A stretch of 64,000 nucleotides of DNA from Malacoraja senta (taxonomy: Eukaryota). The position numbers and the translations under genes are program-made. This document shows, piece by piece, positions 4,977 through 58,944 of the stretch. Positions within the stretch are counted from its first letter, which is position 1. Every line of letters starts with the position of its first letter. The stretch spans positions 6,760,001-6,824,000 of the forward strand of contig CM075993.1 of assembly GCA_038087875.1 (NCBI GenBank), given 5' to 3'. The notes beneath the pieces were generated by a model. The model saw only the letters and a list, made by a program, of their open reading frames with translations. It was not told where the DNA came from and searched no databases.

Positions 4977-5113
4977 CTGTTCTCAGGCCGCACGTTGAGG
5001 AAATAGCTCCGGCTGGATTCTCCCCGGACAGGCGGCTCATTGTCCCCGTTGGTGTCGAGGGATGGGTAGCGGCCGTTGGCTGAATAAGACCGGATAATCC
5101 GCTTGGAACTCAT
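4977..5113 (-). CDS. alpk3: First coding exon of alpha-protein kinase 3 (MSSKRIIRSYSANGRYPSLDTNGDNEPPVRGESSRSYFLNVRPEN+AG); rest of gene lies left of the window
   Basis: ATG at 5113, 137 nt (45 codons + 2), canonical donor AG|GTGAGA at 4977/4976. Peptide resembles recalled vertebrate ALPK3 N-termini (RSYSANGR; SRSYLLSVRPE / SRNYLSNVRPENR). Confidence 0.85.
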
Positions 5114-5965
5114 TCTCCTTGCTTGCCTCTGTGCAAACCCCCCCCTCGAATCCTCGACCGCCACAGATCCCTCAATCCAGACTCCCGAGGAAATTAAAAT
5201 CCCAAAGAAACGCCCGGACAAAACCAGCCACAAATCCTCTCGGTTTGATGTGAAGATCACCAGCTATTGGGAGAAATTTAAACAGGAGTTTAACATTAAT
5301 ACAAATCACCAAAGAACCATTTCCAAGAAATGTCTGTCCACTTAACATTGGCATTTTAAAACTTTTCCTTTACATTTCCTCAAATTAAATTGCTAACTAT
5401 TGCAATCACCAGAAAGTTTTTTTAAATTTTTTTTATAAAGTATTGGAAGCATAAAACCTACCGAGAGATCGAAAGTTATAATGGGGCTGGTGTTCAGAGT
5501 TTAAAAATAGATCCAGACAGTTTCATGGGCGTACAGAGAAAAGTGTACGTCCCATGGACAACTTTACAGGCAGCAGAACTGTGCTTGACAAAGGTTCTCT
5601 AACGTGAGAAATAATAACTGCAATACAATAGAAACGACTTTTGTACTCACTATTCCGCCTGCTCGGAGATTTGTCTTAGTGTCAATACCCCAGTGACTGC
5701 ACCTGTCAGCCAGCTCCCTCCCCTCTCCCTATTTAAGATACTATTTAAAGAACCGTGCAGTCTGAAAATACGAACGGCACTTTCCAGAAGTCTGTTTCTT
5801 CCTGAAGCCTTTGTGAGAACAAATAACATCGGGGCTGTGGGAATAATATTTGGAGGTGGGGAGTTGCTGGAGAGGTTGTTTTTTTAGGTGGGGGGGGGGG
5901 GGTTGTTGCTGGTCGGGATTTGCTGACCGACTAGCGTGCCCCTTGTCGACTGAGACGCGGTGCCA

Positions 5966-5999
<34 letters not shown>

Positions 6000-6130
6000 G
6001 CCAAGAGTTCGGGACTCGATCAACTCAGCCAGAGCCATCAATCAGCAGACCTGCAGCAGCTGCCCCTCGAGAAACAATGCGATTTACAGTAAACATGCCA
6101 TTTCACCGCAGGGCTCAATAGAGGGGGGAG
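5114..6130 (-). promoter_or_regulatory. Putative alpk3 5'UTR and promoter
   Basis: About 1 kb free of interspersed repeats directly upstream of the ATG. MEF2-type TTAAAAATAG at 5501-5510, two TATA/MEF2-like CTATTTAA elements at about 5729-5750, and a (CA)n tract at about 5967-5997. Confidence 0.5.
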
Positions 6131-6600
6131 AGGAATGTGTGCAACTTACAGCGTGGAAACAGGCCCTTCGGCCCGCCGAGTCCATGCCAACCAGCGACCC
6201 CCGCACGTTAACACTATCCTACACACACACCAGGAGGGACAATTTAAACTTACACCAAGCTAATAAACCTACAAACCTGTACGTCTTTGGACTTGATAGG
6301 GTAATGAGAGCACACCACTGGATCGTCCAGATGTTGATCTAATCTTCATGTGGGGTTATGGGGAGAAGGCAGGAGAATGGGGTTAGGAGGGAGAGATTGG
6401 ATGGTGGCGTAGACTTGAAGGACCGAATGGCCTAATTCTGCTCCTATCACTTATGAACACAAGACCCATAAGGTTCAAGAACAGGACACAAGGCTGTTTA
6501 AACTTGCCACGCCATTCATTGGTTCAGTTTAATTTACTGTCACGTGTACCGCGGTACAGTGAAAAGCGTTTGTTGCGTGCTAACCAGTCAGCGGAAAGAA

Positions 6601-6912
6601 AGGGCAGCACGGTGGCGCAGCGGTAGAGTTGCTGCCTTACAGCGCCGGTGATCCGGGTTCAATCCTGACTACGGGCGCCGTCTGTACGGAGTTTGTACGT
6701 TCTCCCCGTGACCCACGTTGGTTTTCTCCGAGATTTTCAGTTTCCTCCCACACTCCAAAGACGTGCAGGGTTGTAGGTTAATTGGCTTGGTATAAATGTA
6801 AAATTGTCCCTAGTGTGTGTAGGATGGTGTTAATGTGCAGGGATCGCTGGGTGGCGCGCGGACTCGGTGGGCCGAAGGGCCTGCTCCCACGCTGTATCTC
6901 TAAACTAAAAAA
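6601..6912 (+). mobile_element. HE1-type V-SINE, full length (representative of about 30 copies or fragments)
   Basis: ggcagcacggtggcgcagcggtag (A box)...gggttcaatcc (B box)...V-domain...gggccgaagggcctg...ctaaact. Other copies near 13151, 15808, 17042, 19120, 20715, 22302, 22755, 25077, 26168, 31603, 34005, 34928, 36700, 38583, 39527, 41642, 43800, 55100, 57330, 62370 and 63275. Confidence 0.9.
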
Positions 6913-8414
6913 CAATGCATGATCACCATCGAACCATTCACATTCATTAAGATCATGGCTGATGCTCGACCTCAGAACCATGATCCGGTGCCATTTCTAT
7001 AGTCCTGATTCCTCCAACATACACAATGATGGCCTGGGTGTAAATGTAGATGGATTGGTATATGGTTGCTGACAACACTATAATTGCAGACAGTGAGGAA
7101 GGCGGAAGATACAGATACAAAGGGGCAGAGGAATGGCAGATGGAGTTTAACTCGAGCAAGTGTGAGGATTTGGTAGGTTGAATGTAAGGGGAAAGTATAC
7201 ATAGAAACAGGTGCAGGAGTAGGCCATTCGGCCCTTCGAGCCAGCACCACCAATCAATACGATCATGGCTGATCATCCAGAATCAGTACCCCATTCCTGC
7301 TTTCTCGAGGGTTCTGAATGCCCAACTTCACCACTAGGTGCCGCTACAGCATCAGGTTCAGCATAAACATTGTGGGCCGAAGGGCCTGTTCCTGTGCTGT
7401 ACTGTTCTACGTTCCAATGACTATTCATACTCTGGCTTAGAGTCACTATCCCCCATGTGAAAAAGTACACCTTGGTCCCAAATGGCCCTCACCCCACTCT
7501 GTATCTATCTCAGACTGTAACCCTGGTACCAAAGTCCTCTGTATTTTCAATTTAGTCACAGATGCCAATTGTAATCACCAGAATAGTTCAGGATTAGGTT
7601 TATTATTGACACGTGTACCGAGCTGCAGTGAAAAGCTTTGTTTTGCATGCTGTCCAAACAAATCAATACCATACATAAATACAATCGAGTCAAACTCAAG
7701 AACAGTAGATAGAGCAAACCAGAAGTGAGATAGTGTAGAATATAGTTCTCAGCATTGTAGCGCATCAGTTCCATAGACAAAGTCCAATGTCCGCAATGGG
7801 GTAGAGGTGAATCGGACAGTACCCTAGCTTATGGAAGGACCGTTCAGAAGCCTAATAACAGAGGGGAGGAAGCTACTTAATTTTGTTTCGAGATACAGCG
7901 TGCAAGCAGGCCTTTCAGCATACCAAGTCCATGCCGACCGGCAATCTCCCGTACACTAATTCTATCCTGCACTTGGGACAATTTACAGAAGCCAATTGAC
8001 CTACAAACGCGCACGTCTTTGGAATGTGGAATTTTGGAAATTGAATATAGCTGTAGACATAAAAAGCTGGGGTAACTCAGCGGGTCAGGCAGCATCTCTG
8101 GAGACAAAGAATAGGTGACCTTTCGGATCGAGACCCTTCTTCAGACTGAGACTCAGGGGAGAGGGGGAAACGGGAGATATGGAAGGGGACACAGAACAAA
8201 GGAATAAACGACATGCAAAAGGACAAATCGAAGCCAGCAACGATGATCAAAGAAAAGTGGAGCCCACAATGGGCCATTGTTGGCTGTGGAGAAGTTGATA
8301 ATGAGTAAATGCATAGTGAGAGGACAGTGAAACTAGGGTAACCAGGGTGGGGGAGGGACAGAGGGAGAGAGGGGATGCAAGGGTTACTTGAAGTTAGAGA
8401 AATTAATATTCATA

Positions 8415-9035
8415 CTAGAAACATAGAAAATAAGTGCAGGAGTAGGCCATTCGTCACCAAGCCAGCACCGCCATTCAATTTGATCATGGCCGATCATCCA
8501 GAATCTGTATCCCGTTTCTGCTTTCTCCCCATATCCCCTGATTCCATCAGCCTTAAGAGCTCTATCCAACTCTCTCTTGAATACATCCAGTGAATTGGCC
8601 TCCACTACCTTCCACAATGAGAGAATTCCACAGATTCACAACTCTCTGGGTGAAAAAGTTTTTCCTCATCTCAGTCCTAACTGGCCCTTATTCTTAAACT
8701 GTGACCCCTGGTTCTGGACTCCCCCAACACCGGGAACATTTTTCTTGATTCTAGTTTGTCCAATCCCTTAATAATTTTATATATTTCTATAAGAACCCCT
8801 CTCATCCTTCTAAATTCCAGTGAATGTAAGCCCAGTTGACCCATTCTTTCATCATATGTCAGTCCCGCCCTGCTGGGAATTAACCTGGTGAACCTACGCT
8901 GCACTCCCTCAATAGCAAGAATGTCCTTCCTCAAATTAGGAGACCAAAACTGCACACAACACTCCAGGTGTGGTCTCACCAGGGCCCTGTACAACTGCAG
9001 TCGGACCTCCTTGCTCCTATGCTCAACTCCTCTTG
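8415..9035 (-). mobile_element. CR1/HER1 LINE 3' fragment
   Basis: LYRALVRPHLECCVQFWSP...VQRRFTRLIP...RTRGHSLRIR. Confidence 0.9.
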
Positions 9036-9439
9036 CTACTAGTGAGTTGTAAGCTAGCCAAGCGAAATATGAGGTGCTGTTCCACCAACTTGCGCTGGGC
9101 CCCACTGACAGTGGATGAGGCCCAGGACAGAAAGGTCAGTGTGGGAATGGGAGGGGGAGTTAAAGTGTTTGGCAACTGGGAGATTGCATAGCTACAGAAT
9201 ATAGTTAATCCTGCGTTTGGCCTCTATCCTTCCAAACCTTTCCCATCCAAGTACCTGCCTACATTTATTTTAAATGTTTCATACACGCACCATCCTCTGC
9301 ATGAAGAAATCGCCCCTCGGGTCTCTTTTAAATCTTTTCTCCTCTCCCCTGAAACCTATCCACTCTCATCTGGACTTCTCTGTCTTGGGAAAATGGCCAC
9401 AACCAATAACCTTTTTGATGTCTCTTTTCAACACTGGTT

Positions 9440-9862
9440 CGCAATAACCAACTCCCGGTAGCCAAGCACTTCAACTCCCCCTCCCATTCCGAATCCGACC
9501 TTTCTATCCTGGGCCTCCTCTATGGCCAGAGTGAGTCCCACCACAAATTGGAGGAGCAGCTCCTCATATTTCGCTTGGGTAGTTTACACCCTAGCGGTAT
9601 GAACATTGACCTCCAATTTCAGGTAGTCCTTGCTTTCTCCCTCCTTCCCCTCCCCTTCCCAGCTCTCCCACAGCCCACTGTCTCCATCTCTTCCTTTCTT
9701 CTTCCCGCCCCCCTCCCCCCTCATCTCCACATCAGTCTGAAGAAGGGTCTGGACCTGAAACGTCACCTATTCCTTTGCTCCATAGATGCTGCCTCACCCG
9801 CTGAGTTTCTCCAGCATTTTTGTCTACCTTCGATTTTTCCAGCATCTACAGTTCTTTCTTAA
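9440..9862 (+). mobile_element. Penelope-like element 3' fragment (GIY-YIG C-terminus plus pLTR)
   Basis: PVAKHFNSPSH...KLEEQLLIFRLGSLHPSGMNID followed by ctgaagaagggtctggacctgaaacgtc. Confidence 0.85.
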
Positions 9863-9904
9863 ACTTTTCTATGCCTCTCGTGATGTTGTATCCCTCTATA
9901 AATC

Positions 9905-10310
9905 CATCCCCAAGCTGGCTTGGACATGTACGCAGGATGGAAAATGGACACATGCCCAACGAGTTGCTACATGGGGGAGGTCGCCAATACACGAAGGCCC
10001 AGAGGAAGAACAAAGCTTCGCTACAAGGAGAAGATTAAAAAAGATACCACAAACTTTAATATCGCTGCTCACAACTGGGATGCGGCTGGTGGGGACCGGA
10101 GGAGGTGGAGAAGGGACCTCCAGGCGGGTATGAAGCACCGTGACAGCATGTTGGTTCAAGACCCGGGAGGCCAAGCGCCAACGCCACAAAATGGTCGACC
10201 GCAACATCGATCCCACGGCCAGCGATAACTTCACCTGTGGGAGCTGTGGAAGGGTCTACCTCTCCAGGACAGGCCTAGTCAGCACAGGAGATGCAGCCAC
10301 AGATGAACCA
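9905..10310 (+). mobile_element. RTE-clade LINE 3' fragment, degraded
   Basis: WLGHVRRMENGHMPNELL / RRPRGRTKLRYKE, then a terminal CGSCGRVY Zn-finger-like segment. Confidence 0.7.
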
Positions 10311-11080
10311 TGACCCTTGCCAGCTTTCCCCTTCCACATGCCAGCTCTTGCCCATCCCATACCCTCATGAGTCTCTCTCTCTCTCCATCTCTCCCTCCTC
10401 CCTCTCCCTCCCTCTCCCCACCTTCTCTCTCCCTCTCCCTCTCCCCCTCTTTCTCTCCCTCTCCCTCTCTCTCCCTCTCTCTCCCTTGCCCTCCCTCTCC
10501 ATCTCCATCCCCCTTCTCTCGCTCTTTCCCAGCTTTCTCCCCTCTACTCCATCGGTCTGAAGATGGGGTCTTGACCTGAAGCCTTGTCTGTCCATTCCCT
10601 CCACAGAAGCTGTCTGACCCGCTGAGTTCCTCCAGTGTCTTGCTTTTTGTCCAAGATCATGTGGGGCTGGAGGTGGGAGGGATCCTGCCAATCCTAGCCA
10701 GGGTCTCAGTCCCATTGGAGTCTCCTACCTCTAGATTCCCTCTCCCCTGACTCTCGGCCCGAAGAAGGGTCTCGACCCGAAACATCACCCATTCCTTCTC
10801 TCCAGCCTGTCCTGCTGAGTTACTCCAGCATTTTGTATCTATCTTTGGTCTTTAGTTGAGGTTCATCCTAAGCAGCCTGCTTAGTGGAGTTAAAATAGTT
10901 AGCAACTGGGAATTCCAGCAGATCGTAGAGTGTTTGGTGTAATGGTCACGTAGTCTACGCTTGGTCTTGCCGATGTACTGGAGGCTACAATATAAAGTTG
11001 CCCATTGTACAACACTACACCAGATTTTGTGAATGGAATATAACTTGGAGAAATACTCACCTTCTCTGGTGGAGCAGGGA

Positions 11081-11100
11081 CTGCCACTAGGGGGCGGCTC
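11081..11100 (+). promoter_or_regulatory. CTCF-like motif
   Basis: ctgCCACTAGGGGGCGgctc matches the CTCF core CCASYAGRKGGCR. Confidence 0.5.
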
Positions 11101-11703
11101 CGTGGCACAGCTAGTAGAGGCGCTCCCTCACAGTTGCCTGTTGACCCAGGTTCGATCCTGACCTCGGACGCTGTCCATGTGGAGTTAGCACATCCTCCCT
11201 GTGGCCGTGAAGGTTTCCCCTGGGTGCTCCGGTTCCTCCCATCCCCCCCCCCTCGCTGCTCACCAAAAAACTTGCGGGATGGTAAATTAATTAGGGAATT
11301 CATGGCGTGCACGTGAGTGGTAGAATCTGACGAAAGTTGATGGGAATGTGGGGAGAATAAAATTGGGTTAGTATAAATGGATGGGATGAAGGGCCTGTTT
11401 CCTTGCTGCTGCCTTTATGACTTAGTGATCACTCTAGTTTTAGAATCCTCTGCGCAGGAGATAAGCCTGCGTTTGTTCGTTCGTCCGTTCCGGTTAAAGC
11501 GCTGTGCACACGGCAGCCAGCTAACAGTCGCTTGACATTTTTTTTTTTTCACTTTTAATTTCATTTTTATTTCAATTTTTCGTGTACCTTGTTGTGTGTT
11601 GTGACTGTCGGCAGCCCAATTTCCCGCCAGGGATGAATAAAGTTCTATCGTATGGTTTCGTATATAAATACAACATCATGAGCCACTGTTCCGAGAATCG
11701 TTA

Positions 11704-16009: not shown

Positions 16010-16340
16010 GTGTGTACCATAGTGTTTGTGTACCATAGTGTTTGTGTACCATAGTGTTTGTGTACCATAGTGTTTGTGTACCATAGTGTTTGTGTACCAT
16101 AGTGTTGTGTACCATAGTGTTTGTGTACCATAGTGTTTGTGTACCATAGTGTTTGTGTACCATAGTGTTTGTGTACCATAGTGTTTGTGTACCATAGTGT
16201 TTGTGTACCATAGTGTTTGTGTACCATAGTGTTTGTGTACCATAGTGTTTGTGTACCATCGTGTTTGTGTACCATAGTGTTTGTGTACCATGTGTTTGTG
16301 TACCATAGTGTTTGTGTACCATAGTGTTTGTGTACCATAG
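16010..16340 (+). repeat. 16-bp minisatellite (tgtgtaccatagtgtt), about 20 copies, inside an HE1 SINE (15808-16430)
   Basis: Direct reading; SINE sequence resumes on both sides. Confidence 0.95.
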
Positions 16341-18036
16341 TTTTTGTGTATGATGGCTGGTCAGCGCGGACTCACTGGGCCAAAGGGCCTGTTTCCGCGC
16401 CGTATTTCGAAACTAAACTAAACTAAACTAATCATGCAGGTTTGTAGATCAATTGACTTTGCTAAAATTATAAATTGTCCCTAGTGTGTAGGTTAGTGCT
16501 GGTGTGTAGGGTGATCGCTGGTCACCACAGACTCAGCGGGCCGAAGGGCCTGTTTCCACGCTAAAGTCTAAAGTAAAGATATCGTTGGTGTGAAAGCCAT
16601 CAGATCTTCCCTCCGCAGTCTCTAACCTGGATACGTACCAACGCTGCACTGCAAGACAGGAAGGCACACCAGCGCCTTGACTTCCCGACAAGCCTGAGGA
16701 AATTGGCCATGTCTTCACTGACTCTTAAATGCTTCGACAATAATAATAATACAATAATACTTTATTAGCCAAATATGTTTTTCAACATACGAGGACTTTT
16801 ATTTGCCAAGTCCATCATACAAATCAAAAGCAACAAGACATAAGCTAGGGTCCTGTTTGATTCACCTCTACCCCATTGACATTGGACTTTGTCTATGGAA
16901 CTGAAGCGCTCAATGCTGAGAACTATATTCTGTATTCTGTATCTTCCCCTTTACTCTCACTTGTGCAACACGGTTTCCCTCTCCGCTGACTCTCTGTCTG
17001 AAGTAGGGTTTCAACCTGAAACATCACCTATTCCTTTTTTTAGTTTAGTTTAGTTTAGTTTAAAGTTACAGCGCGGAAACGGGCACTTCGGGCCATCGAG
17101 TCCGCGCCAACCAGCGATCCCCTCACAATGACACTATCCCACACACACTAGGGACAATTTACAATGTTCCCAATCCAATTAGGATACAAAGCTGTGCGTC
17201 TTTGGAGTGTGGGAGGAAACCGGAGCTCCTGTAGAAAACCCACGCAGGTCCCGGGGAGAACGTACAAACTACGTACAAACAGCACCCGTGATCAGGATCG
17301 AACCCGGAACCCCGGGCCCGGTAAGGCAGCAACTCTACCGCTGCGCCACCGTGCTGCCGTGCCACTCCGGAGATGCTGCCTGACCCGTTGAGTACTCCAG
17401 CGTTTTGTGTCTATCTTCAGGGGAAGAATCTTTGTGTGGCTGAGAAGCAAGAGGCTAAAACTGGGAACGCATGGCTCCAAGAAACGACAGGAAGAACGAC
17501 ACATAAAATTAACCGCTTGTTTGTATATTAGTGTTTCTCTCCTTTCTTTCAAACAATCTATTTGCCAATCATTTCTCCTCAATATGCCTTCTACCTGCTT
17601 CATTGTACATGGGAAAGATTTGTTTTAATTTTCCCATCATGAATTAACTTAACTAAATGTGTAGGAGGAAACTGCAGATGCTGGTTTATACCGAAAATCG
17701 GCACTAAGTGCTGGAGCAACTCAGTGGGACAGGCAGCATCTCTGAAGAAAAGGAACAGGGGATGTTTTGGGTCGGAACCCCTGTTTCTCTCTGAAGAAGG
17801 GTTCCAATCCGAAACGCCACCTATTCCCTTTCTGCAGAGATGCTGCCTGTCCCGCTGAGTTACTCCAGCACTTTGTGTCAGTGATTCCAAAAAGTCACCT
17901 GTCTGTTCCCTCCACACAGATGCTGCCTGAACCCCCTGAGTTACTCCAGCACTTTGTGTTTTGCTCAAGGTTCCAGCATCTGCAGTTCCTTGTGTCTCCA
18001 TGCCACTTCAAAGCGTATTTTAAACAGTTAACCTTA

Positions 18037-21596: not shown

Positions 21597-21607
21597 GGGA
21601 ATTTCCC
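21597..21607. promoter_or_regulatory. Near-palindromic NF-kB site in a unique-sequence island (about 21380-21780)
   Basis: GGGAATTTCCC, matching GGGRNWYYCC on both strands. Confidence 0.4.
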
Positions 21608-29095: not shown

Positions 29096-29141
<46 letters not shown>

Positions 29142-29176: not shown

Positions 29177-29219
29177 ATGCCGTCTGGACACGGGCTCACA
29201 CACAGCCCCCGCTCCCCAG
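29177..29219 (+). CDS. Candidate first coding exon 1a of paracaspase (MPSGHGLTHSPRSP+G)
   Basis: ATG at 29177, 43 nt, donor CAG|GTAAGA, phase 1, in frame with the Ig exon at 58823. Confidence 0.5.
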
Positions 29220-39226: not shown

Positions 39227-39854
39227 TAACCCTTCTTCACACTCGGAGATGCTGCCTGTCCCGCTGAGTTACTCCAGCATTTTGTGTCTATCTTTGGCGT
39301 AAAACCAGCATCCTTCCCACACACTGGATTTAACTAGTGTCGTTGATCGGAGTGGACTCAGAGGGGCAAAGGGCCTGTTTCCACACTGTAACTCTAAGAT
39401 GAAAAAGTTAAACAAATTTCTACTCAAAGTGTGCTGTGTGACAATCAATTTTCAATCCTTATCTGTGTATCACTCCTAACTGTAGCTGTTCATATTTACA
39501 CACTTTGTTTGTATTATTTAATCGAAGGCGGCACAGCGGTAGAGTTGCTGCCTTACAGCGAATACAGCGCCGGAGACCCGGGTTCGATCCCGACTACGGG
39601 TGCTGTCTGTACGGAGTTTGTACGTTCTCCCCGCGACCTGCGTGGGTTTTCTCCGAGATCTTCGGTTTCCGCCCATACTCCAAAGACGTACAGGCTTGTA
39701 GGCTAATTGGCTTGGTAAATGTAAAAATTGTCCCTAATGGGTGTAGGATAGTGTTAATGTGCAGGGATCGCTGGTCGGCGCAGACCCAGTGGGCCGAAGG
39801 GCCTGTTTCCGCGCTGTATCTGGGGTAAACATCACACCTTTCATAAATCAGACA

Positions 39855-40662
39855 ACAGAAGTGGCGGCGCTGTGGCAGCTGCGGCTCGCCTGCAGTCCGT
39901 TTGTCTTTTTTTTCCCTTTTGTCCTGTTTTAGTTTATTCAGTTTATTTTGGTTGCGTATGTGTGGGGGGTGTGGGTGAAACTTGTTTTAGTCTCTTCCTT
40001 CGGGGGGGGGATGCGACCTTTTCTTGTCATATCTCCGTCTCCGTCTGCGCTAAGGCCTATCGCGGAGCTGGCGGCCTCCAACTGGGGCCGACCTCGAGGC
40101 TCCGGAGGCAGAGCCAGGACTTACCAACGCGGGGCTGGCCGACTTCGGGGCTGCGGTGGCGTTGCGGCTGCAGCGACCCGACTTCGGGGCTGTGGCGGCG
40201 TTGCGGCGGCAGCCCAACTTCGGAGCCTCGGAGGCTTCGGCCGCGGGCCCAGTGGATGACAACATCGGGAGCTCGCAGGTCCCAGGTTGGTGACCGGTTG
40301 TCCGGAGCTCCCGCAACAACAGCTTCGTCCGCTGGACTGGAGGGTGGCAGCTTCGTCCGCCCCGGGCCGCGGAGCTCAGATTCGGCCGCGGGACTTACCA
40401 TCACCCAGCGGGGGAGCCCAACATCAGAAGCCTGGATCGCCTCAACGCAGAGGGAGAACAAGGAGGGAAGAGACAAGGACTTTAAGACTTTTGCCTTCCA
40501 CACACAGTGAGGAGGTGCCTGGTAGACTCACTGTGGTGGATGTTAAACTGTTAAGTGTGTGTTTTGTTATTTTATTCTATGTTATGACTGCAAGGTTTCG
40601 CAATTCCGTTGGGACTGAAAGGTCTGAATGGCAATAAAGGATAATTTGACTATGACTTTGAA
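39855..40662 (+). mobile_element. CpG-rich non-coding retroelement-like insertion with internal ~40-bp subrepeats
   Basis: Starts aagtggcggcgctg; repeated ccgacttcggggctg(c/t)gg(t/c)ggcgttgcggc; ends aataaa then (tttgac/tatgac)n. Confidence 0.5.
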
Positions 40663-41020: not shown

Positions 41021-41220
41021 NNNNNNNNNNNNNNNNNNNNNNNNNNNNNNNNNNNNNNNNNNNNNNNNNNNNNNNNNNNNNNNNNNNNNNNNNNNNNNNN
41101 NNNNNNNNNNNNNNNNNNNNNNNNNNNNNNNNNNNNNNNNNNNNNNNNNNNNNNNNNNNNNNNNNNNNNNNNNNNNNNNNNNNNNNNNNNNNNNNNNNNN
41201 NNNNNNNNNNNNNNNNNNNN
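41021..41220. other. Assembly gap (200 N)
   Basis: Run of N. Confidence 1.
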
Positions 41221-43470: not shown

Positions 43471-44316
43471 TAGATGTCTGTGAAATATATCCTCATTTGA
43501 ATGAGTGTGCCTTAAGAAGGTACGTTAGTAATGATAATTTAAAGTCCAACATTAAACAAAAAAATGGGTATTGCAGACTAAATAGTGTGCAATGTCATAC
43601 AAACTCTATGACCAAGCAAGACAAATTTAATAACAACTTTACAAAACGATGGTTTGGCCACACCTTAAATTGGGTGAATGCTTCTGGTCACCACATTATA
43701 TGAAGGACAAGGATTTTCATCACCAAGGCATGGAAAGCTATGAACCTAATCTGGTTATGGAGTATGTATAGATAGCTTCTTGATGGTCAGCACGGTGGGG
43801 GTGGCACAGTGGCGCAGCGGTAGAGTTGCTGCCTTACAGTGCTTGTAGTGCCAGAGACCCAGGTTCGATCCCGACTACGTTCTCCCCGCGGGAAGCGGTA
43901 CGTTCTCCCCGTGACCGCTTGGGTTTTTCCCAAGATCTTTGGTTTCCTCCCACACTCCAAAGACATGCAGGGTTGTAGGTTAATTGGCTTGTTATAAGTG
44001 TAAAAAAATTGCCCCTGGTGTGTGTAGGATGGTGTTAATCTGCGGGGATTGCTGGTCGGTACGGACTCGGTGGGCCGAAGAGACTGTTTCCGTGCTTTAT
44101 CTCTAAAAAAAACACTAAAACACCATGGGCCAAGGGGCCTGTGGCTGTACTGATTGTCTATGGATCTATATGCAGTCATGACCCATTTTACTGCAGGTTT
44201 TATTAGTTTGGAGATACAGCATGGAAACAGGCCCTTCGGCCCACCGAGTCAACACCAACTATCGATCACCTGTTCACTCTAGTTCTACGTTATCCCGTAT
44301 TCTCATCCATTCCTTA

Positions 44317-44720
44317 AGGGCCTGTCCCACGGGCATGCGACTCCATGCGGCAAGAGCGACCTAACCGGAAGTGGGGGGCGCGCGGAGGTCGCGGGGCCGG
44401 TCCCACTTCGATCACCGGAGCCGTATGGAGTTGTGCGGAGCTGGTCCCGACATCGCGCGGGGCTCCGAAAAACTGACACTATTCAAATATTCCGCGCGGC
44501 AGCGGCCTGCCGCCCCGCAGCCGCATCGAGGCCATGCGCACCGCCTCGACGTCACTCGACCTCTGCGCGGCCCCCGCTTCCGGTTTGGTAGCGCTTGCCG
44601 CATGCAGCCGCATGCTGGTGGGACCGGCCCTGTACGGGGATCACTCGACCTCCGCGCGGCCCCCGCTTCCAGTTAGGTTGCGCTTGCCGCATGGAGTCGC
44701 ATGCCCATGGGACAGGCCCT
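44317..44720. mobile_element. GC-rich MITE of the same TIR group (subfamily E), TSD TTA
   Basis: Long inverted arms AGGGCCTGTCCCACGGGCATGCGACTCCATGCGGCAAG...; tta on both flanks; splits a SINE tail. Confidence 0.88.
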
Positions 44721-46339
44721 TTACACATTTGGAATTGGGTACCAGAGGACATAGGTTTAAGGTGAAGTGGAAAGATTTAATAGGAATCTGAGGGGTAATG
44801 TTTTTACACTAAGGGTGGTGGGTGTCTGGAACAAGCTGCCAGAGGAGGTATTTGAGGCGGGTACCATCGCAACGTTTAGGAGGTACATGGATGGAATAAG
44901 TTTGGAAGGATATGGACCAAACACAGGCAGGTGGGACTAGTGTAGATGGGACATGTGGGTAAGTTGGGCCAATTGACCTGTTTCCACTCTGTTTGAGTCT
45001 AGAGTCAATTTTACAGAAGCCCATTAACCTACCAACCTGCACATCTTTAGGATGTGGGGGGAAACTGGAGCACGTGGAGGATACCTACGTGGTCACAGGG
45101 AGAAGGTGCAAATTTCACACAGACAGCACTCTGAGGTTGGGATCGAACCCAGGTCTCTGGCGTTGTGAGGCCAGCGGTTCTGTGCTACACGGACAACGGA
45201 CGTAGTTGGAACCTGGTCCCTGATGCTGTGAGGCAGCAACTCTACCGCTGCACCATCGTGCCGGCCCTAAAACAGTGCCGTTCTTCACAATGCATCCTGA
45301 ATGCTGAGCAACAAGCACACGTCTGGGCATATTTGACTACATCGAAAGTCCCTTGTATCACTTTTGGTCAAATTTGCATAGGATGAACCAATACAAATAT
45401 ACACACATTTTTTAAGCCAGCTGCAAATCACACAATTGTCGCTTTCAATTGTCACAAACCACAGCATCTGCTATTAATTTGGTATTTTTGATATATTTCA
45501 AACCAGCTGCAAATCGCTGGTGTGTAGGAAGGAACTGCAGATACTGGATTATACCGGAGATAGACACAAAATGCTGGAGTAACTCAGCGGGTCAGGCAGC
45601 ATCTCTGGAGAAAAGGAATAGGTGATGTTTTAGGTCCAGTCACTTAATCAGACTCACTATCACTAATGAATCAATATTGTTGCTTCCTCTTGTCATAGCA
45701 ACGGCAACGTGTCCATTCGGTACTTTTAATATAATCTCTCAGGGTGGTGCTGAAAGGAAGAAGTGTTCATTAATATGGTGTGTTTCATAATGTCAGACTA
45801 TCCCTATACTGTATTCGAAATGTGTCAGAAGGAACTGCAGATGCTGGTTTTAAACCGATGATAGATGCAAAATGCTGGAGTAACTCAGCGGAACAGGCAG
45901 CATCTGTGGAGAGAAGGAATGGGTGACCCTTGACTGATCAGTCTGAAGAAGGGTCTCGACCCGAAACGCCGCCCGTTCCTTCTCTCCAGAGATGCTGCCT
46001 GTCCCGCTGAGTTACTCCAGCATTTTGTGTCTATCCTGTGTAGTGACTGTTGGGGAAGGTGGTGGAACGCTGGGGACTTTTCCACGTTGGGGCCTGGCCC
46101 TATGTGCGTGTCTCTACAAACTAATACGTGTGGTTAAGTTGGTTGCTTTTACTTCTCCTATCCTGCTGGATCATTCTGGAGGCTGGTGTGTGAGAGTTCG
46201 GCGATGTCAGGGGTGCTTCTGTCCATGACACAGCGGTGACTCCCTGTTCACGGACTGAGCTCGGCAAGATGTGCCGGCATCCAGCTGCCTTCAGAAGGTG
46301 CGGCAGAGGGAAACTGAGGAGTTTGTAGCCAAGAGGACA

Positions 46340-46397
46340 ATGAACTGGGAGGAACAGTTTGCAAGAAGCTTAGCCCTGCAACCCAGGGAAAAGTCAG
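46340..46397 (+). CDS. Candidate alternative first coding exon 1b of paracaspase (MNWEEQFARSLALQPREKS+G)
   Basis: ACAATG context, upstream in-frame TGA, 58 nt, donor CAG|GTAAGG, phase 1, within a unique-sequence island at about 46040-46550. Confidence 0.5.
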
Positions 46398-49148: not shown

Positions 49149-49227
49149 ATATTACCTCCTCGATCCAGGAGTTGACCAGCTAAGCCAGTAAAGAATCGGT
49201 AGTAATTGGCCACAGGCGGTGAGCAAC

Positions 49228-50172
49228 TTTGGCCACATGGTGGTGAGCAACACAGGGACCCCCACGGGGGGACGATCCTCTCTCCCTTCCTGTTCACCAT
49301 CCACGCCGCGGACCTCAGTTATAACTCGGACTCCTGCCACCTGCAGATGTTTTCAGATGACTCTGCAATTGTGGGCTGCATCAGTGAGGTTGATACAGAG
49401 GTGTGTGTAGTCAACGGCTTTGTTGAGTGGTGTGGGCTGAATCACCTGCAGCTCAACACCGGCAAGACTAAAGAGATAGTGATGGACTTTGGGAGGAGAG
49501 GAACACCCCTGTCTCCATCAATGGTGTGGATGTGCAGTTTACCAGGGAGTACAAATACCGTAAATACCAGTAAACTAGACTGGTCCAGGAACACTGAGGC
49601 CCTGCACAAGAAGGGACAGAGCCGGCTGTACTTTTTGAGAAGGCTCCACTCCTTCAACGTCTGCTGTAAGATGCTGCAGATGTTCTACCTGTCGGTGGTA
49701 GCCAGTGCCTCCTTCTTCGCTGCTGTGTGCCGGGACAGCAGGGCAAAGGCCGCGGACGCCAATAAGATCAACAAACTCATCAGGAAGGCTGGCTCCGTCC
49801 TGGGGGTGGAGTTGGAGTTGGATTCACGGGAGGTTGGTCTTGGAGTGGAGGATGCTCCTCAAACTGCGGAGCATCCTGGACAATACAGCTCACCCCCTCC
49901 ATGACACACTGGTCAACCTGAGGAGCACCTTCAGCAACAGACTGGTTCCACCAAGATGCAGCACAGAACGCCACAGGAGATCCTTCTTCCCTGTGGCTAT
50001 CAAACAGGACAACTCCTCCCCCATCTGTCGTGGGGTAGACTGAGACCCCCCCCCAATCTTTGCACATCCGTATCCTTTCCACTCGTCACTTTAATTTCAT
50101 GTTTCATGTATTTCGTGTTTTATGACAGTTGGCAGATCAATTTCCCTCCTGGAATAAATAGTTATCATATCG
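49228..50172 (+). mobile_element. Rex1-clade LINE RT and 3' region, frameshifted
   Basis: VVSNTGTP/GTILSPFLFTI...HLQMFSDDSAIVGCI...HLQLNTGKTKEIVMDF...KKGQSRLYFLRRLHSFNV. Confidence 0.88.
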
Positions 50173-52025: not shown

Positions 52026-52551
52026 GGATTTTTATTTGCCCAGTCATGGTCTGTGGGCAGAGGCAGAACCGATCAGTAACGCATGGGTTTTAAACACAGC
52101 TGTTATTGGTAGGAAGGAACTGCAGATGCTGGTTTACAACGAAGATAGACACTGGTGTAGCCCAGCGGGACAGGCAGCATCTCTGGAGAGAAGGAATGGG
52201 TGACGTTTCAGGTCGAGACCCTTCCTCAGTCAGTCGGCAGCTGTTATTGCCGTTGCTTCTACGGAGAATATTTAATGCTCCCACACGGCGGGGGAGGGGG
52301 TAACGCTGCACCTCACGGACGATCTCAACACAGCGAGAGAGACAAGAATCCCAATGATGAGAGTTAAGAGTCACACTTTCCACAACAGGAAGTTGCCATT
52401 GCTTAGCGTCAGCTGTGTCTTTGAGTCAGAAGGTCTTGGGAGCTGGACATGAAACTGCACACCAACGCTCCACAAACATGTGACTGCTGACCTCCAGAGG
52501 ACCCCCATGCTTGCAATTGTATTCATCCACATCATCTCAAAATGAAAATAG

Positions 52552-53215
52552 TCTATGTATATGTGTATATATATGTGTGTGTATATGTGTGTATCTATAT
52601 ATGTGTGTACATGTATGTATATGTGTGTGTATGTGTAATGTGCACATTATATATATGTGTATATATATATATGTGTGTGGATATGTGTGTGTGTGTGTAT
52701 ATATATATATATGTGTGTGTATGTGTATCTATATATGTGTGTACATAAACTTGTTTGTGGAGCATTGGTGTGCAGTTTTTGTGTATGTAAATGTGTGTGT
52801 ATGTGTAATGGGCACATTATATACGTGTATATGTATATATAATAATAATAATAATACATTTTATTTATATAGCGCTTTTCAGGACTCAAAGTCGCTTTGA
52901 GTCCTGAAATATATGTGTATGTGTATATATGTATGTATATATATGTGTGTGTAATGTGCACATTATATACATGTATGTATATATGTATGTATATATGTAT
53001 GTATATATGTACTTATATATGTGTGTATATATATATATATGCATGATATATATATATATGTGTGTGTGTGTGACTGAAGAAGGGTCTCGACCCGAAACGT
53101 CACCCATTCCTTCTCTCCAGAGATGCTGCCTGTCCCGCTGAGTTACTCCAGCATTTTGTGCGTATGAGTATATACATACGCACATACATACACACACACA
53201 CACATACATGTGTGT
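52552..53215. repeat. Compound (TA)/(TG) microsatellite with an embedded L2-type tail and a pLTR
   Basis: Direct reading. Confidence 0.9.
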
Positions 53216-53544
53216 AACACTAATGTACAGTCAAATTAAAAAAAATCATGCCTAACCTAATAAACAATCAATAAAGAGAGTGAGCCTAACCTAAACCATC
53301 CTTTTATTGACCTGACTGGGACCTGTAGATTGCAATGAGTGTTGTGGACATAATGCAGAGGGGCCAGATAGGAAGTGCATCCAGCCCCATAGCTCAGCAA
53401 CTGTTACAGGGTGGTGCTCGGCTCCATGGTCAGGGGTGGGGAGAGTGGTGAGAAGCTCAGTGTGGACGTCCGATACCCATGGATGGATGCACTTGGCAGT
53501 CTCTGGGTATTGTCCAGCCAACTGAATAGCCTGGCCCTTGGTGT

Positions 53545-53826
53545 CATCTGTCTGTCTCTCTGTCTGTCTGTGTGTCTGCCTGTGTGTCTGTCTGTCTCTG
53601 TGTATGTGTCTGTCTCTGTGTGTCTGTCTGACTGTCTGTTTTTGTGTGTTTGTCTGTATGTGTGTCTGTCCCTGTGTGTGTGTTTGGCTGTATGTGTGTA
53701 TATGTCTGTCTCATTGTGTCTGACTGTCTGTCTCTGTGTGTTTGTCTGTATGTGTCTGTCTGACTGTCTGTTTGTGTGTGTGTGTGTGTGTCTGTCTGTC
53801 CCTGTCCCTGTGTCTGTCTGTCTGTC

Positions 53827-53862
<36 letters not shown>

Positions 53863-54015
53863 TGTTCCTATGTGTCTAACTGACCCTGTGTATGTCTGGC
53901 TGTCTCTGTGTGTGTCTGTCTCCCCTCTGTGTCTGCCTCCCCCTCTGTCTCTCTCTCTCTCCCCCCCCTCCCCCCCCCTCTGTGTCTGTTTGTCCCCCTG
54001 CTGTGTCTGTCTCCA
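53545..54015. repeat. Low-complexity (TG)/(TCTG) tract
   Basis: Direct reading. Confidence 0.9.
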
Positions 54016-56878
54016 CTCTGAGCGTGTGGGGAGCCCATCCTGTCCATGGCACTCCACTGAACCCCCTCTTCTCCCCTCTCCCATCAGGCAAAAGGTATAG
54101 AAGTGTGAAAACGCACACCTCCCGATTCAGGGACAGTTTCTTCCCAGCTGTTATCATCCTACCATAACCAGAGAGCAGTGCTGAACCTCATCAGTGACCC
54201 TCGGACTATCTTTGATCAGACTGTACTGGCTTTGCCTTGCACTAAACAATCTTCCCTTATCATGCACATTGCGTATGGCTCGATTGTAATCATGTATTGT
54301 CTTCCCACTGGCTGGTTAGCATGCACCAAAAGCTTTTCACTGTACCTCGGTACACGTGACAATAAACTAAACTGAACTAAGCAGTTGCTAACAAAGTGAA
54401 TTCTTTGAGCTGGAAATTCCCACCTTGATGTGTTTATGTGTCAAACTCCATCTATGACATTTGATTCCATTGACTTCAAGTTCAAAAAATAATAAATTGA
54501 ACACCCCTTGACCACTGGTCACAAACTTTCCAACAGAAAGACGCACTGGTCAACCTGAGGAGCACCTTCAGCAACAGACTGGTTCCACCAAGATGCAGCA
54601 CAGAACGCCACAGGAGATCCTTCTTCCCTGTGGCTGTCAAACTGTACAACTCCTCCCCCTTCTGTTGTGGGGTAGACTGACTCCCCACCCCCCTCCCCAC
54701 CCACATCCCCAATCCTTTCCACTCGTCACTTTAATATCAGGTTCCATGTAGTTTGTGTTTTCTCACAGTTGTCAGATCAATTTCCCTCCTGGGATAAATA
54801 AAGTTTTATTGCATCATGTCGACTAATATAATCCAGTGATCAAAGCTGCGGAATACAGTTTCTTGCATCCCCTGTGAAACTTGCTTTTCCTGTTTTAATT
54901 CAAAGGGGCTGGTGTTGGAAATGTGGTTTCCAACGAATCATTTAAAATTAATCTGATGAAGAACTGGAATTTCTCTTTCCAACAGAAAGATTGGCCTTTT
55001 GTTTCAATTCCTGATTCTAACGGCTCCTATTTGATCTTACGGTAGATCTCAGAACCACAGGTGGAAGCCGGTGTGGTTTTGACTGGTTTCCTTTTTTTTA
55101 GTTTGGTTTAGAGATACAGCGCGGAAACAGGCCCTTCAGCCCACCAGGTCCGTGCCGACCAGCGACCGCCGCGCACTAACACTGTCCGACACACGCTAGG
55201 GACAATTTTACATTTACACCAAGCCAATTAACCTACAAACCTGTACGTCTTTGGAGTGTGGGAGGAAACCGAAGATCTCGGAGATAAACCAATGCAGGTC
55301 ACGTGGAGAACGTACAAACTCCGTACAGACAGCACCCGTAGTCAGGATTGAACCCGGGTCTCCAGCGCTGTGAGGCAGCAACTCTACCACTGCGCCACCG
55401 TGCCGCCCTTGTTTTCTTTATATTTATTTATCTATCTCTTCATCTATTTATTGAGTAACTCAGCAAGTCAGGCAGTATCTCTGGAGAACATGGATTGGTG
55501 ATGTTTCGGGTCAAGACCCTTCGTCAGACTGGGAGAGGCAGGATGAAGAGTGACAGGTAATAGGTAGACGCAGGCAAGGAGGGCAGATTGGAGTTGGTGG
55601 TTCTACCCCCACTTACCCCCCCCCCCCCCCCGGCCTCTGAAGGCTCTCGACCCAAAGCATGTTCTCCATAGATGCTGCCTGACCTGCTGAGTGACTCCAG
55701 CACTTTGTGTCCTTTTGTTCATTAGCCAGCATCTGCAGTTCCTTGTTTCTACAAGGAGAAGAACATTGTATTTCTATGAGTAGCCTGGGACATTCCACTA
55801 GTGACCTCTTCAAATGTCATTGTATTTGCAATAGCAATGTAAGGACTGGGGTTTACGACTCTTGTATTATGGAACAAGGAGGTGCAGAGAAATGAAACTT
55901 TCTCATGGATATGCAAGGCGTAATGCGTTGGAGTAACTCTGTGGGTCAGGCGGCATCTGTGGAGGGAATGGACGGAAAACGTTAGAGGTTGAGCCCCTTC
56001 TTCAGGCTGACAGGCGATGTTTCGGATCGGGACACCTTTTTCAGAATCCAACCTGAAGAAGGTTCCCAACCCAAACGTCACCTGTCCATTGCCTCCACAG
56101 ATGAGTTTCTCCAGACCTTTGTGTTTTGCTTTAGATTCCAGCATCCGCAGTTCCTTGTCTCTTGTGCATATAAACAAGTTCCCTTCATATTTATCAGCTG
56201 TTACTCTGCTCTCAGAGGGCAGTGGAGGCGGGTTCTCTGGATGCTTTCAAGAGAGAGCTAGATAGGGCTCTTAAAAATAGCGGTGTCAGGGGATATGGGG
56301 AGAAGGCAGGAAAGGGGTACTGGTTGGGGATGATCAGCCATGATCACATTGAATGGCGGTCCTAGCTCGAAGGGCCGAATGGCATACTCCTGCACCTATT
56401 GTCTATTGTCTATTACCTTCCCTCCATTGAAATACATTTAAGGTGCACCCTTTGCTGTAATGTACCCTAATTTGAACACATAAAGCACGCACCTGAGATC
56501 AGGCATCAAAAAAAAGTAAAAACAACATATTTTTAGTAAGTGTAAAACCACACACACACCAAAATCCTAGACTTCCAGCGGCGGAAGTCCGCAGGAACTG
56601 GAGGACAGACATGTGTGGTGCGTCCGTCACCGTTCCTGTTGGAAACCAGCACCACTGCGTCGCTAATGTTTTCAACGCTGATGGATGAATGAATGAATGA
56701 AACAAGTCTATGATCTTCAACCTCTTTAATGAGATAAAGGGAATTGGACACAAATGAGGTTCTGAACATTCTAGGAGTAAACCAAAGACTGGTAGAGTTT
56801 ATACATTTGGCAAAGTTAGTATATCAGGGTCTTTTACCTTTTAGTCATTTGTTAAGATTTGAATGCTTGCAGTTAAAC

Positions 56879-57043
56879 TTTGAACATTTCAAAATCCAGC
56901 GGCGACAAAAAAATGTTGCGACACTTGAGGAGACACGTCAATACCTCGTCACGCCTCATCACGCCGCGATTTTTTCGGTGACCTGATACGTCAGTCAATG
57001 ATGCCGACAGTCGCCAAAAAAATAGCAAAGTGGGACAGGTCCT
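56879..57043. mobile_element. Right half of a MITE of the GGGCCTGTCCCAC TIR group
   Basis: AAAGTGGGACAGGTCCT-taa terminus; begins at degenerate palindrome tttgaacatttcaaa. Confidence 0.6.
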
Positions 57044-57650
57044 TAAGGGAACAATTCTACCGCTGCACCACTGTGGCATCTGCTGATAGTTCTATTTGCT
57101 GCTCTTGATTAGTGTAGCCACCAGCTACAACCGCACAACGTGGACTCCCCATTTATACCTCCTCTGTTTTCTGTCTTTTAGCCAGTTCCCGGTCAGTACG
57201 TAACTCCAAATCCCACGTTCTTGATTTTGCTCAATAGCCTCTTGTGCAGCACCTTATTGAGGATCTGCAAATCCTCAACGATGAAAATGTCTTGCCTTTT
57301 GTTCCTTCCTACGCTTGATTCACCATGTTTAAGTTTAGTTTAGTTTAGAGGTATAGCGCAGAAACAGGCCCTTTGGCCCTCCGCGTCCGTGCCGACCAGA
57401 GATCTTTGCGTACATACACTAACCTACACAAACTGGGGCCAATTTACAATGATACCAAGCCAATTAGCCTACAAACCTTTGGAGTGTGTTACGAGTCTTT
57501 GGAGTGTGGGCGGAAACCGGAGCATCCGGAGAAAAGCCAAGGCAGGTCACGGGGAGAACGTGCAAACTCTGTACAGACAGCACCAGAGGTCTTGATGGAA
57601 CCCAGGTCTCTGGTTAAGGGGCAGACTTTTGGCCAACTGATAGATCCTTG

Positions 57651-58690
57651 CAACTTTATTTATTTATATAGCACATTTCATACACGAGGCAGACTCACAA
57701 AGTGCTTCACATAAAAACATGTCATACAATAAAATGAAATCATAAAATGAAATAAAATAGAAGAATTAAAAGAAAAGAAAAGCAAAGTTAAAAATGTATT
57801 ATAGAAAAGTGCAAAAGTTAAAAGTGCAATGTAGTTAAGATTTAGCTGAAAGCTAAAGTAAACACAAGTTTTCAGTCTTGTTTTAAAAGTGGTGAATGTA
57901 GGGGCAAGTCTTAAATCTCCAGGAAGTTTATTCCAGCTATTTGTTGCATAGTAACTAAATCCTGCTTTCCCATGTTTTGTATTTACTCTGGGAATCACCA
58001 ACAGATTGGTCTCAGAAGATCTTAGCGGTCTAGAAGGCTTATATAGTGGAAGCATGTCAGTGATAGACTTTGGCCCTAAACCATGTAGTGATTTATAGGT
58101 GAGCAGCAGGATTTTGAAATCAATTCTCTGACATACAGGGAGCCAATGTAAGGATTTAAGAATTGGTGTAATGTGTTCAAATTTTTTGGTCTTTGTTAGA
58201 ACTCTAGCAACAGCGTTCTGAACAAGCTGTAGCTGTCTGACAGTTTTTTTCAGAAGACCTGCAAGGAGACCGTTACAATAATCTAGCCTACTAGTAATAA
58301 AGGCATGTACACGTTTTTCTAAGTCTTGAGCTGACATGAGTCCTCTTAATCTTGCTATGTTTTTGAGGTGATAGTAGGCCGATTTAGTTACTGATTTGAT
58401 GTGACTGTCGAAATGTAAATCTGAATCCATAATAACCCCGAGATTTCTGGCTTTGTTTGAAGTTTTCAGGGACAGAGAGTGAAGGTGTTGGGTTAGCTTA
58501 AGCCTTTCTTTTTTAGCACCAAAAACAATTATCTCCGTTTTGTCCTTATTTAGTTGGAGGAAATTTTAGGCACATCCAGCCTTTGACTTGCTCAATGCTC
58601 TGGCACAGCAGATCTATGGGGCGATAGTCATTTGGTGATAGCGCTACATAGATTTGAGTGCCATCGGCATAGCTTGATGGAACAACACGA
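57651..58690 (-). mobile_element. L2-clade LINE, 5'-truncated, teleost-like
   Basis: SYADGTQIY (YADD motif mutated)...FLQLNKDKTEII...KSAYYHLKNIARLR...VHAFITSRLDYCNGLL...HITPILKSLHWLPVCQRIDFKILLL; 3' end aaatgtgctatataaataaataaagttg. Confidence 0.92.
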
Positions 58691-58822
58691 TGGAAATGTT
58701 GGAATTGGCTGACTCATATTGACCATTGGGAACCAAGAGTAGAAGTCCCAGTGGTTGGAAGCTCGTTCGTTCGGCGTTGTTGCAATCCGACTGATTTATG
58801 GGAGAAAAATGTCTCTCCGCAG

Positions 58823-58944
58823 GTATTGTCATCACTAAAGAACCCGAGTGTGCCTCTGTCCCGGCTGGCTGTCCTGTCACTCTTCAATGCTCTGCCATAG
58901 GGCCCACTGCACTACAGTACCAATGGTTTGAAGGCAAGGAGGAG
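58823..58944 (+). CDS. MALT1-family paracaspase exon encoding the N-terminal half of Ig domain 1 (GIVITKEPECASVPAGCPVTLQCSAIGPTALQYQWFEGKEE); probably the PCASP2/malt2-type paralog
   Basis: Acceptor tctctccgcag|G, donor GAG|GTAAGC, 122 nt, phase 1-0. Aligns without gaps to recalled human MALT1 GIKITVNPESKAVLAGQFVKLCCRATGHPFVQYQWFKMNKE. Head-to-head with an ALPK gene. Not in the supplied ORF track. Confidence 0.85.

Follow-up and report, generated by a model that had tools for sequence, protein, structure and literature searches.

Does the paracaspase gene beside ALPK3 in a skate correspond to a known vertebrate paralog, and what kind of protein does it encode? The window analysed here is a 64-kb stretch (64,000 bp) of the genome of Malacoraja senta. 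In this window, the first-pass annotation had described an ALPK3-like first exon on the minus strand and, oriented divergently from it, a MALT1-like Ig1 exon of 122 bp on the plus strand. It had interpreted them as a duplicated ALPK-paracaspase block, retained in a chondrichthyan and most likely containing PCASP2. Both exons, their orientation and the block as such proved to be real, and the gene is indeed a non-mammalian MALT1 paralog, but the paralog is PCASP3. As a whole, the locus is best explained, with good though not full confidence, as the divergent 5' ends of ALPK3 and of a skate PCASP3 gene whose product lacks a death domain and would work in a manner similar to the p76 fragment of MALT1.

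Divergent 5' ends of ALPK3 and a paracaspase gene

The 45-aa peptide encoded by ALPK3 exon 1 matched 8 proteins among 11 candidates, all eight named alpha-protein kinase 3 (73-91% identity; the best was a skate protein with 91%, E 1.2e-16). A second ALPK3 exon was not found in the 64-kb window by tblastn. On the opposite strand, the 40-aa peptide of the Ig1 exon matched 14 proteins among 15 candidates (best 98%, E 4e-22). All 14 come from chondrichthyans and combine Ig, Peptidase_C14 and MALT1_Ig domains; 13 are named MALT1 and one is hypothetical.

Two upstream exons had been missed by the first-pass annotation (Table 1). Exon 1a agrees in 13 of the 15 residues aligned with the N-terminal end of RefSeq proteins from skates and with that of P0023, the product of a transcript-sized contig in which the exon 1a leader is followed directly by Ig1. 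The sequence upstream of exon 1a resembles extended 5' ends of models from Leucoraja and Rhinoraja, and 1 of the 24 listed sequencing runs contained half the sequence words of the region around exon 1a. Exon 1b, an alternative exon specific to chondrichthyans, shows 37-67% identity to isoform leaders of rays and sharks. Its in-frame ATG at 46340 opens 19 codons plus 1 nt and leads to phase 1; spliced behind exon 1a, it would run into a stop in this species. Three sequencing runs compared with 58300-58958 showed no splice joints but a single genomic contig spanning the Ig1 exon; they are uninformative on expression.

Table 1. Features of the window (positions in the 64,000-bp stretch).
Feature	Position	Strand	Details
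ALPK3 exon 1, coding part	4977-5113	minus	ATG at 5113; 137 coding nt; ends in phase 2; donor gtgag
(CTG)15 repeat, putative 5' UTR of exon 1a	29097-29141	plus	repeat seen in the sequence
PCASP3 first coding exon (exon 1a)	29177-29219	plus	14 codons + 1 nt; phase 1; donor gtaaga
Assembly gap	41021-41220		200 N; inside PCASP3 intron 1
Alternative chondrichthyan-specific exon (exon 1b)	46234-46397	plus	164 nt
PCASP3 Ig1 first-half exon	58823-58944	plus	exactly 122 nt; phase 1 to 0; boundaries cag/gtaag
LINE retroelement, endonuclease and reverse transcriptase frames	59277-61817	plus	Exo_endo_phos_2 E 9e-12; RVT_1 E 2e-36

With exon 1a as the first coding exon, the start codons of ALPK3 and PCASP3 are 24,064 bp apart, which makes a bidirectional promoter, strictly defined, unlikely. 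A spacing of about 54 kb, obtained with the Ig1 exon as the first exon, was dropped. No intervening gene was found between the two genes; short exons or the content of the 200-N gap could escape such a search. When open frames of at least 60 aa in mostly single-copy sequence were scanned, 3 of 140 reached the Pfam curated cut-off, all of them pieces of LINE-type retroelements, and the frame of the Ig1 exon matched Ig families below that cut-off. The LINE retroelement in Table 1 sits in the intron 3' of the Ig1 exon.

That the skate copy is a decaying pseudogene is most improbable: compared with rays and sharks, the exon 1b frame is broken ahead of its ATG, and the downstream exons lie outside the window, but the Ig1 peptide is identical in 40 of 40 residues to proteins of two other skate genera (Amblyraja and Leucoraja), its splice sites are intact, and so is exon 1a, which the skate RefSeq models use as well.

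Assignment of the skate gene to PCASP3

In a tree of the caspase-Ig3 region, the chondrichthyan orthologs formed one clade with proteins of coelacanth, lungfish, amphibians, bichir, gar and teleost malt3 (100/100). This clade fell outside PCASP1 and PCASP2 (100/98), and the same placement was obtained in two further trees. The caspase and Ig3 exons of the skate gene lie beyond base 64,000 of the window and were assessed through orthologs; the trees used skate orthologs identical to the window's Ig1 exon. The first tree was calculated without 2 of 39 rows that miss the anchor motif (included in the later trees) and without 3 partial or chimeric rows, and P0145, labelled lamprey, reads as a teleost protein and was excluded from the trees. 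The topology agrees with the published split between PCASP3 and PCASP(1/2) (PMC5978004). A single clade of the query group and PCASP2 was rejected (AU test, p = 6.6e-9).

Names and neighbours point in the same direction. Orthologs from gar, medaka, stickleback and Nothobranchius are labelled 'MALT paracaspase 3', and the clade includes a frog ortholog (Ascaphus truei); the published tree lists pcasp1 and pcasp3 for frogs and no pcasp2. In 7 of the 8 species with an ALPK3 match, the contig carrying ALPK3 and the one carrying the paracaspase are equally long; for the eighth, no length is recorded. The skate gene shares this linkage with chicken PCASP3, which a table in PMC13718421 lists together with ZNF592 and ALPK3 on chr10. 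On the basis of phylogeny, AU test, labels, frog ortholog and chicken locus, we have little doubt that the skate gene is the ortholog of PCASP3 (malt3), a MALT1 paralog that mammals lost. The name PCASP3 goes back to Hulpiau et al. 2016, as far as it is cited in PMC5978004, and we infer that the 'malt3' of ZFIN and UniRef is the 'PCASP3' of 2016.

PCASP2 was nevertheless a natural guess. It is the sister of MALT1, and human MALT1 lies beside ALPK2 in divergent orientation, so that another ALPK-linked gene might well be that sister. On the 40-aa Ig1 exon alone, one teleost malt2 (21/40) also scores as high as gar malt3 (22/40). The AU test, the existence of a frog ortholog and the identity of the chicken gene listed with ALPK3 nevertheless make PCASP2 highly improbable. 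Moreover, malt2-named proteins contain a death domain, and their separate clade includes another gene of the elephant shark; the window's Ig1 exon is identical in 28 of 40 residues to the PCASP3-clade protein of this animal and in 18 of 40 to its PCASP2-clade protein. The skate gene was placed neither next to MALT1 together with malt2-named proteins nor in the MALT1 (PCASP1) clade, and its neighbour is not ALPK2.

Absence of the death domain and conservation of the core

A death-domain exon was not detected in any of the six frames of the window (best profile score -3.0 bits), an absence on which the first-pass annotation was silent. In a control, all 10 left-out half-domains were scored by the profile at 13-51 bits. 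None of the 181 PCASP3-group proteins had a death domain (none above 0.8 bits), versus 17 of 21 PCASP1/2-type proteins (25-113 bits); the 181 include isoforms and close relatives and are not independent, and full-length PCASP3 of birds or reptiles is absent from the set. In the 154 of the 181 proteins with both Ig motifs, the leader before Ig1 has a median length of about 14 aa, the longest comprises 101 aa, and none resembles a death domain. We consider it very likely that PCASP3 lacks this domain.

An annotation artefact, with death-domain exons hidden by the N gap or diverged beyond recognition, is very improbable. A 200-N gap does lie within intron 1, and PCASP3 protein models are mostly automatic. 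Against this, the short leader is the same in animals as far apart as chimaera, frogs and teleosts; the complete protein, without a death domain, is encoded on contigs of transcript size (2.1-2.8 kb); and exon 1a and the Ig1 exon are in compatible phase. Exon 1b, similar in length and phase, was also considered as a decayed death-domain exon and rejected, as the profile-profile probability in the right frame was only 0.20-0.24. An earlier comparison with the window row misframed had given 0.16-0.22, and 37 of 100 and 18 of 100 column shuffles equalled the score.

All type 1 paracaspases are said to share their domain structure, and an N-terminal death domain is part of the definition (PMC5978004). 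PCASP3 descends from type 1 paracaspases and has Ig domains ahead of a caspase-like domain, yet it fails this stated definition. The same paper places a TRAF6 site in the Ig3 of all three paralogs; a PxExxG-type site was found in the Ig3 region of 1 of 172 PCASP3-group proteins, and this rarity conflicts with the published statement. The C-terminal TRAF6-type motif PxExx[DE] was present in all 172 PCASP3-group proteins of at least 560 aa. Catalytic His and Cys motifs were found in 9 of 9 aligned PCASP3 orthologs (the skate window ends before the caspase exons), and the best PDB matches were caspase-Ig3 structures of MALT1 (E 6e-111).

Like MALT1, PCASP3 has the Ig1-Ig2-caspase-Ig3 core with a His-Cys dyad in the aligned orthologs, a C-terminal PxE motif and an ALPK-family gene as divergent neighbour. 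Unlike MALT1, it has no death domain and no TPEETG site in Ig3, lies beside ALPK3 instead of ALPK2, and belongs to a separate clade. PCASP2 (malt2), also a non-mammalian paralog, shares the core as well, but differs by its death domain, its position as MALT1 sister and its presence as a different gene in the elephant shark. The skate gene agrees with PCASP3/malt3 of jawed vertebrates in clade, ALPK3 neighbour and Ig-Ig-caspase-Ig layout without a death domain, and the C-terminal PEENDE motif is common to these proteins and the chondrichthyan orthologs. Chondrichthyan PCASP3 differs from that of bony vertebrates in having two alternative short leaders (1a and 1b) and the catalytic-Cys motif DMCRKW, with Met kept, instead of DTCRKW. 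At the Ig1 position that corresponds to the MALT1 self-cleavage site, Arg is missing in all 19 chondrichthyan proteins.

A lamprey model (P0210) lacks a death domain too and has the same C-terminal tail motif as PCASP3. In free trees it stands beside PCASP1/2 (84-93 support), and its membership in PCASP3 gave a p-AU of 0.094; the death domain was possibly lost before the lamprey split.

A possible p76-like mode of action

The death domain of MALT1 binds BCL10, and with the exchange V81R this binding is lost, as are protease activation and NF-kB signalling (PMC6168461). According to PMC4126661, p76 lacks the death domain and has lost BCL10 binding, but retains the Ig domains, the caspase domain and the C-terminal TRAF6 motif; it oligomerises and activates NF-kB through TRAF6. 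When dimerised artificially, PCASP3 of zebrafish acts as protease and scaffold, with Arg-specific proteolysis and TRAF6-dependent NF-kB induction (PMC5978004).

We propose that in PCASP3 mRNA either exon 1a or exon 1b, both short, serves as the first exon and is joined directly to the Ig1 exon, which would result in the layout Ig1-Ig2-caspase-like-Ig3-tail. Such a protein may act, like MALT1, as an arginine-directed cysteine protease and TRAF6-recruiting scaffold, but would be unable to use the interface between the MALT1 death domain and the BCL10 CARD. It would most likely self-associate as p76 does, via Ig1-Ig2 and the caspase domain, or via another adaptor, and would be controlled mainly via expression and not via CARD-BCL10 filaments. 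With the death domain missing and the His-Cys dyad and C-terminal TRAF6-type motif kept, PCASP3 looks like a gene-encoded version of this BCL10-independent MALT1 fragment. The likeness has limits: p76 arises from cleavage within Ig1 once MALT1 has been activated and starts within this domain, whereas PCASP3 is encoded short and has a complete Ig1. On balance, we lean towards a BCL10-independent activation of PCASP3.

It is rather unlikely that PCASP3 is still activated by BCL10, through residual Ig1/Ig2 contacts or through mixed caspase-domain dimers with PCASP1 or PCASP2 on BCL10 filaments, in which it could serve as partner or brake. Reports mention a contribution of MALT1 Ig1/Ig2 to BCL10 binding in cells, and weak binding by PCASP3 is therefore possible. 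The paralogs share a conserved dimer-region motif and the Trp that precedes Ig3, and chicken PCASP3 is listed among upregulated NF-kB-pathway genes of virus-infected tissue in a table of PMC9145607.

A PCASP3 unable to dock on BCL10 would not be redundant with MALT1. In the open-access literature examined, the three vertebrate paracaspases are treated as redundant, with one common domain layout, and the published activity tests used forced dimers, so that the N-terminus was bypassed. A BCL10-independent PCASP3 would be a natural model of such paracaspase activity, with relevance to MALT1 p76 and API2-MALT1 lymphoma. It is doubtful whether all parts of a broader claim hold together, namely that PCASP3 left the CARD-BCL10 signalosome by the origin of jawed vertebrates, that it provides a BCL10-independent paracaspase/TRAF6 route, that mammals substituted p76 self-cleavage and that the loss is unreported. 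The gene and its synteny with ALPK3 are already known, and the naming paper of 2016 may already have reported the loss of the death domain. In practical terms, the analysis corrects a name: skate and shark orthologs of PCASP3 stand in RefSeq as MALT1 or MALT1-like, and the shark and ray genes called MALT1 there can be renamed.

Identity of the paracaspase gene

Both exons on which the first-pass annotation was built, an ALPK3-like first exon on the minus strand and a divergent 122-bp MALT1-like Ig1 exon on the plus strand, proved to be real. The ALPK3 exon peptide matched 8 of 11 candidates, every one named alpha-protein kinase 3 (top match 91%, a skate), and tblastn with these eight proteins detected no further ALPK3 exons in the window. 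Of 15 candidates for the Ig1-exon peptide, 14 matched, and each of these is a chondrichthyan protein carrying Ig, Peptidase_C14 and MALT1_Ig domains. The peptide was identical to the Amblyraja and Leucoraja proteins (40/40), which identifies the host as a skate. In a PDB search, MALT1 Ig1 was the top single-domain match, and the summed score was slightly higher for a four-repeat Ig protein than for MALT1 Ig1. The later exons of the gene lie past the window end, and caspase and tail features were read in orthologs.

When the skate caspase domain was used as query, 1407 matches were obtained, and the bony-fish proteins among the 120 listed bear the UniRef label 'MALT paracaspase 3'; representatives of the other paralogs (ten named) were taken from a separate search. 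In a maximum-likelihood tree of 34 of the 39 chosen rows, the chondrichthyan genes form one clade (100/100) with coelacanth, lungfish, salamander, frog, bichir, paddlefish, gar, bowfin and teleost malt3. The clade of MALT1 and malt2 (100/98) excludes them and contains a second elephant-shark gene. Two further trees agree on this placement, and a topology uniting the query group with PCASP2 was rejected by the AU test (p-AU 6.6e-9). By these comparisons the window gene is PCASP3: peptide search and phylogeny uphold a paracaspase paralog and not the name 'most likely PCASP2'. The bird model P0352, from the PCASP2 cluster, bears the name large ribosomal subunit protein mL54; PCASP2 may therefore adjoin MRPL54, in a paralogous region (19p13-like) distinct from those of ALPK2 and ALPK3.

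The topology has the shape PCASP3 versus PCASP(1/2) published in the available parts of PMC5978004, including its supplementary PDF, where frogs have pcasp1 and pcasp3. A chicken GWAS table places ZNF592, PCASP3 and ALPK3 together at one chr10 locus (PMC13718421, table). The proposed duplicated ALPK-paracaspase block fits the account that ALPK2 and ALPK3 arose through the vertebrate genome duplications (PMC13143021, silent on MALT1 in its accessible text). It was already known that PCASP3 exists, that mammals have lost it and where it sits in the chicken annotation; shark and ray orthologs are already in RefSeq, and elephant shark appears in the species key of a 2016 preprint. Chicken PCASP3 is listed as induced in infection (PMC9145607, accessible part), and the accessible text of PMC9342958 contains nothing on paracaspase paralogs. 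The window gene is thus a real ortholog of a known gene, correctly spotted and misnamed, with one testable feature.

Leader exons and the ALPK3-PCASP3 interval

Features of the window (window coordinates)
Feature	Position	Strand	Remarks
ALPK3 coding exon 1	5113-4977	minus	ATG at 5113, 137 coding nt, then gtgag donor
Minisatellite	16011-16350		16-bp unit, 21 copies, 97% identity; between ALPK3 and PCASP3
(CTG)15 repeat	29097-29141		just 5' of PCASP3 start codon
PCASP3 exon 1a, coding	29177-29219	plus	14 codons + 1 nt; phase-compatible with Ig1 exon
CpG-rich patches	39751-40500, 44001-44750		PCASP3 intron 1; mostly single-copy; no Pfam matches
PCASP3 exon 1b	46234-46397	plus	matches leaders of shark and ray isoforms
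LINE remnant	49206-49901
PCASP3 Ig1 exon	58823-58944	plus	122 nt, canonical boundaries
LINE remnant	59277-61817		long endonuclease and reverse-transcriptase frames

Two exons upstream of the Ig1 exon were located in the window by tblastn with ortholog proteins. A 2.8-kb contig codes for a 687-aa skate protein in which the exon 1a leader is followed directly by Ig1, and this points to exon 1a being spliced straight to the Ig1 exon in a related skate. Exon 1b is in frame in this skate only downstream of an ATG at 46340; since its 5' part is frame-broken, its inclusion behind exon 1a would cause a premature stop. Its start is of the M[SN]WEE type kept across sharks and rays. The (CTG)15 repeat is far shorter in the Rhinoraja and Leucoraja models.

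The start codons of ALPK3 and PCASP3 are separated by 24,064 bp. No gene was found between them among 140 open frames scanned at Pfam cut-offs, a scan that leaves aside short exons and a 200-N gap; three LINE-type pieces alone passed the cut-off. Approximately 55% of the window sequence is repeated inside itself. In 7 of the 8 species with an ALPK3 match, the contig carrying ALPK3 and the one carrying the paracaspase have the same length, indicating linkage, not adjacency.

Absence of the death domain

A death-domain profile was built from 16 paracaspase N-terminal domains; left-out half-domains scored 13-51 bits (10/10). With this profile no death domain was found in six frames of the window (top score -3.0 bits), and none of 181 PCASP3-group proteins, chosen by the motif D[TM]CRKW and including many isoforms, scored above 0.8 bits. 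PCASP1/2-type proteins scored 25-113 in 17 of 21 cases; the other four comprised a fragment, the lamprey model and a pair of aberrant models. Pfam, run without a positive control, reported no death domain in 12 PCASP3 orthologs. In the ESM Atlas, clusters of 650-680 aa are separate from an 806-aa 'MALT paracaspase 2' cluster. The open literature, as far as accessible, yielded no statement that PCASP3 lacks a death domain; the naming paper (Hulpiau 2016) may well contain one, since the same group cloned PCASP3.

Because the domain is absent in every jawed-vertebrate lineage sampled (a sample without full-length amniote copies), its loss, judged from sequence, predates their split. The lamprey model P0210 starts at Ig1, has a similar motif at its C-terminal end and may be truncated; it may belong to the PCASP3 clade, a placement that the AU test did not reject (p-AU 0.094). 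Another protein, which bears a death domain, clusters with hagfish next to PCASP1/2. Two paracaspases may exist in cyclostomes (models P0210, P0240 and P0317), one without a death domain and one with; a single lamprey gene has been reported (PMC5978004, available parts). P0145, a record labelled Lampetra planeri, resembles teleost malt3 and is possibly contaminated.

Catalytic and tail motifs and a model of activation

The His and Cys catalytic motifs are intact in all nine aligned PCASP3 orthologs. A C-terminal PxExx[DE], which we take to be the TRAF6 consensus, is present in 172 of 172 PCASP3-group proteins of at least 560 aa. Arg at the Ig1 position equivalent to the MALT1 self-cleavage site was found in none of 19 chondrichthyan PCASP3 orthologs, which fits a protein with nothing to cleave away; the Arg is retained in several bony-vertebrate orthologs. 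An Ig3-type TRAF6 site occurs in 1 of the 172 proteins, the reverse of the account in the available parts of PMC5978004, according to which all three paralogs have the Ig3 site and the C-terminal site is PCASP1-specific. As a C-terminal PxE motif is common to PCASP1, PCASP2 and PCASP3 and to 6 of 8 invertebrate-type paracaspases checked (sixth residue acidic or aromatic), it may be ancestral, not PCASP1-specific.

According to the accessible text of PMC6168461, the MALT1 death domain docks on BCL10 filaments, and a single substitution in it abolishes BCL10 binding, protease activation and NF-kB signalling. The self-cleavage fragment p76 has lost this domain, does not bind BCL10, self-associates and drives NF-kB via TRAF6 (PMC4126661, accessible part). 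PCASP3 has nearly the same layout as p76, but here it is set by gene structure. We therefore lean towards a model in which PCASP3 would act as protease and scaffold and would be activated independently of BCL10, through self-association or another adaptor. The main rival, activation via remaining Ig contacts or via mixed dimerization with PCASP1/2, seems to us rather unlikely. Zebrafish PCASP3 activity was published from forced dimers, as far as the available text goes, and is compatible with either route.
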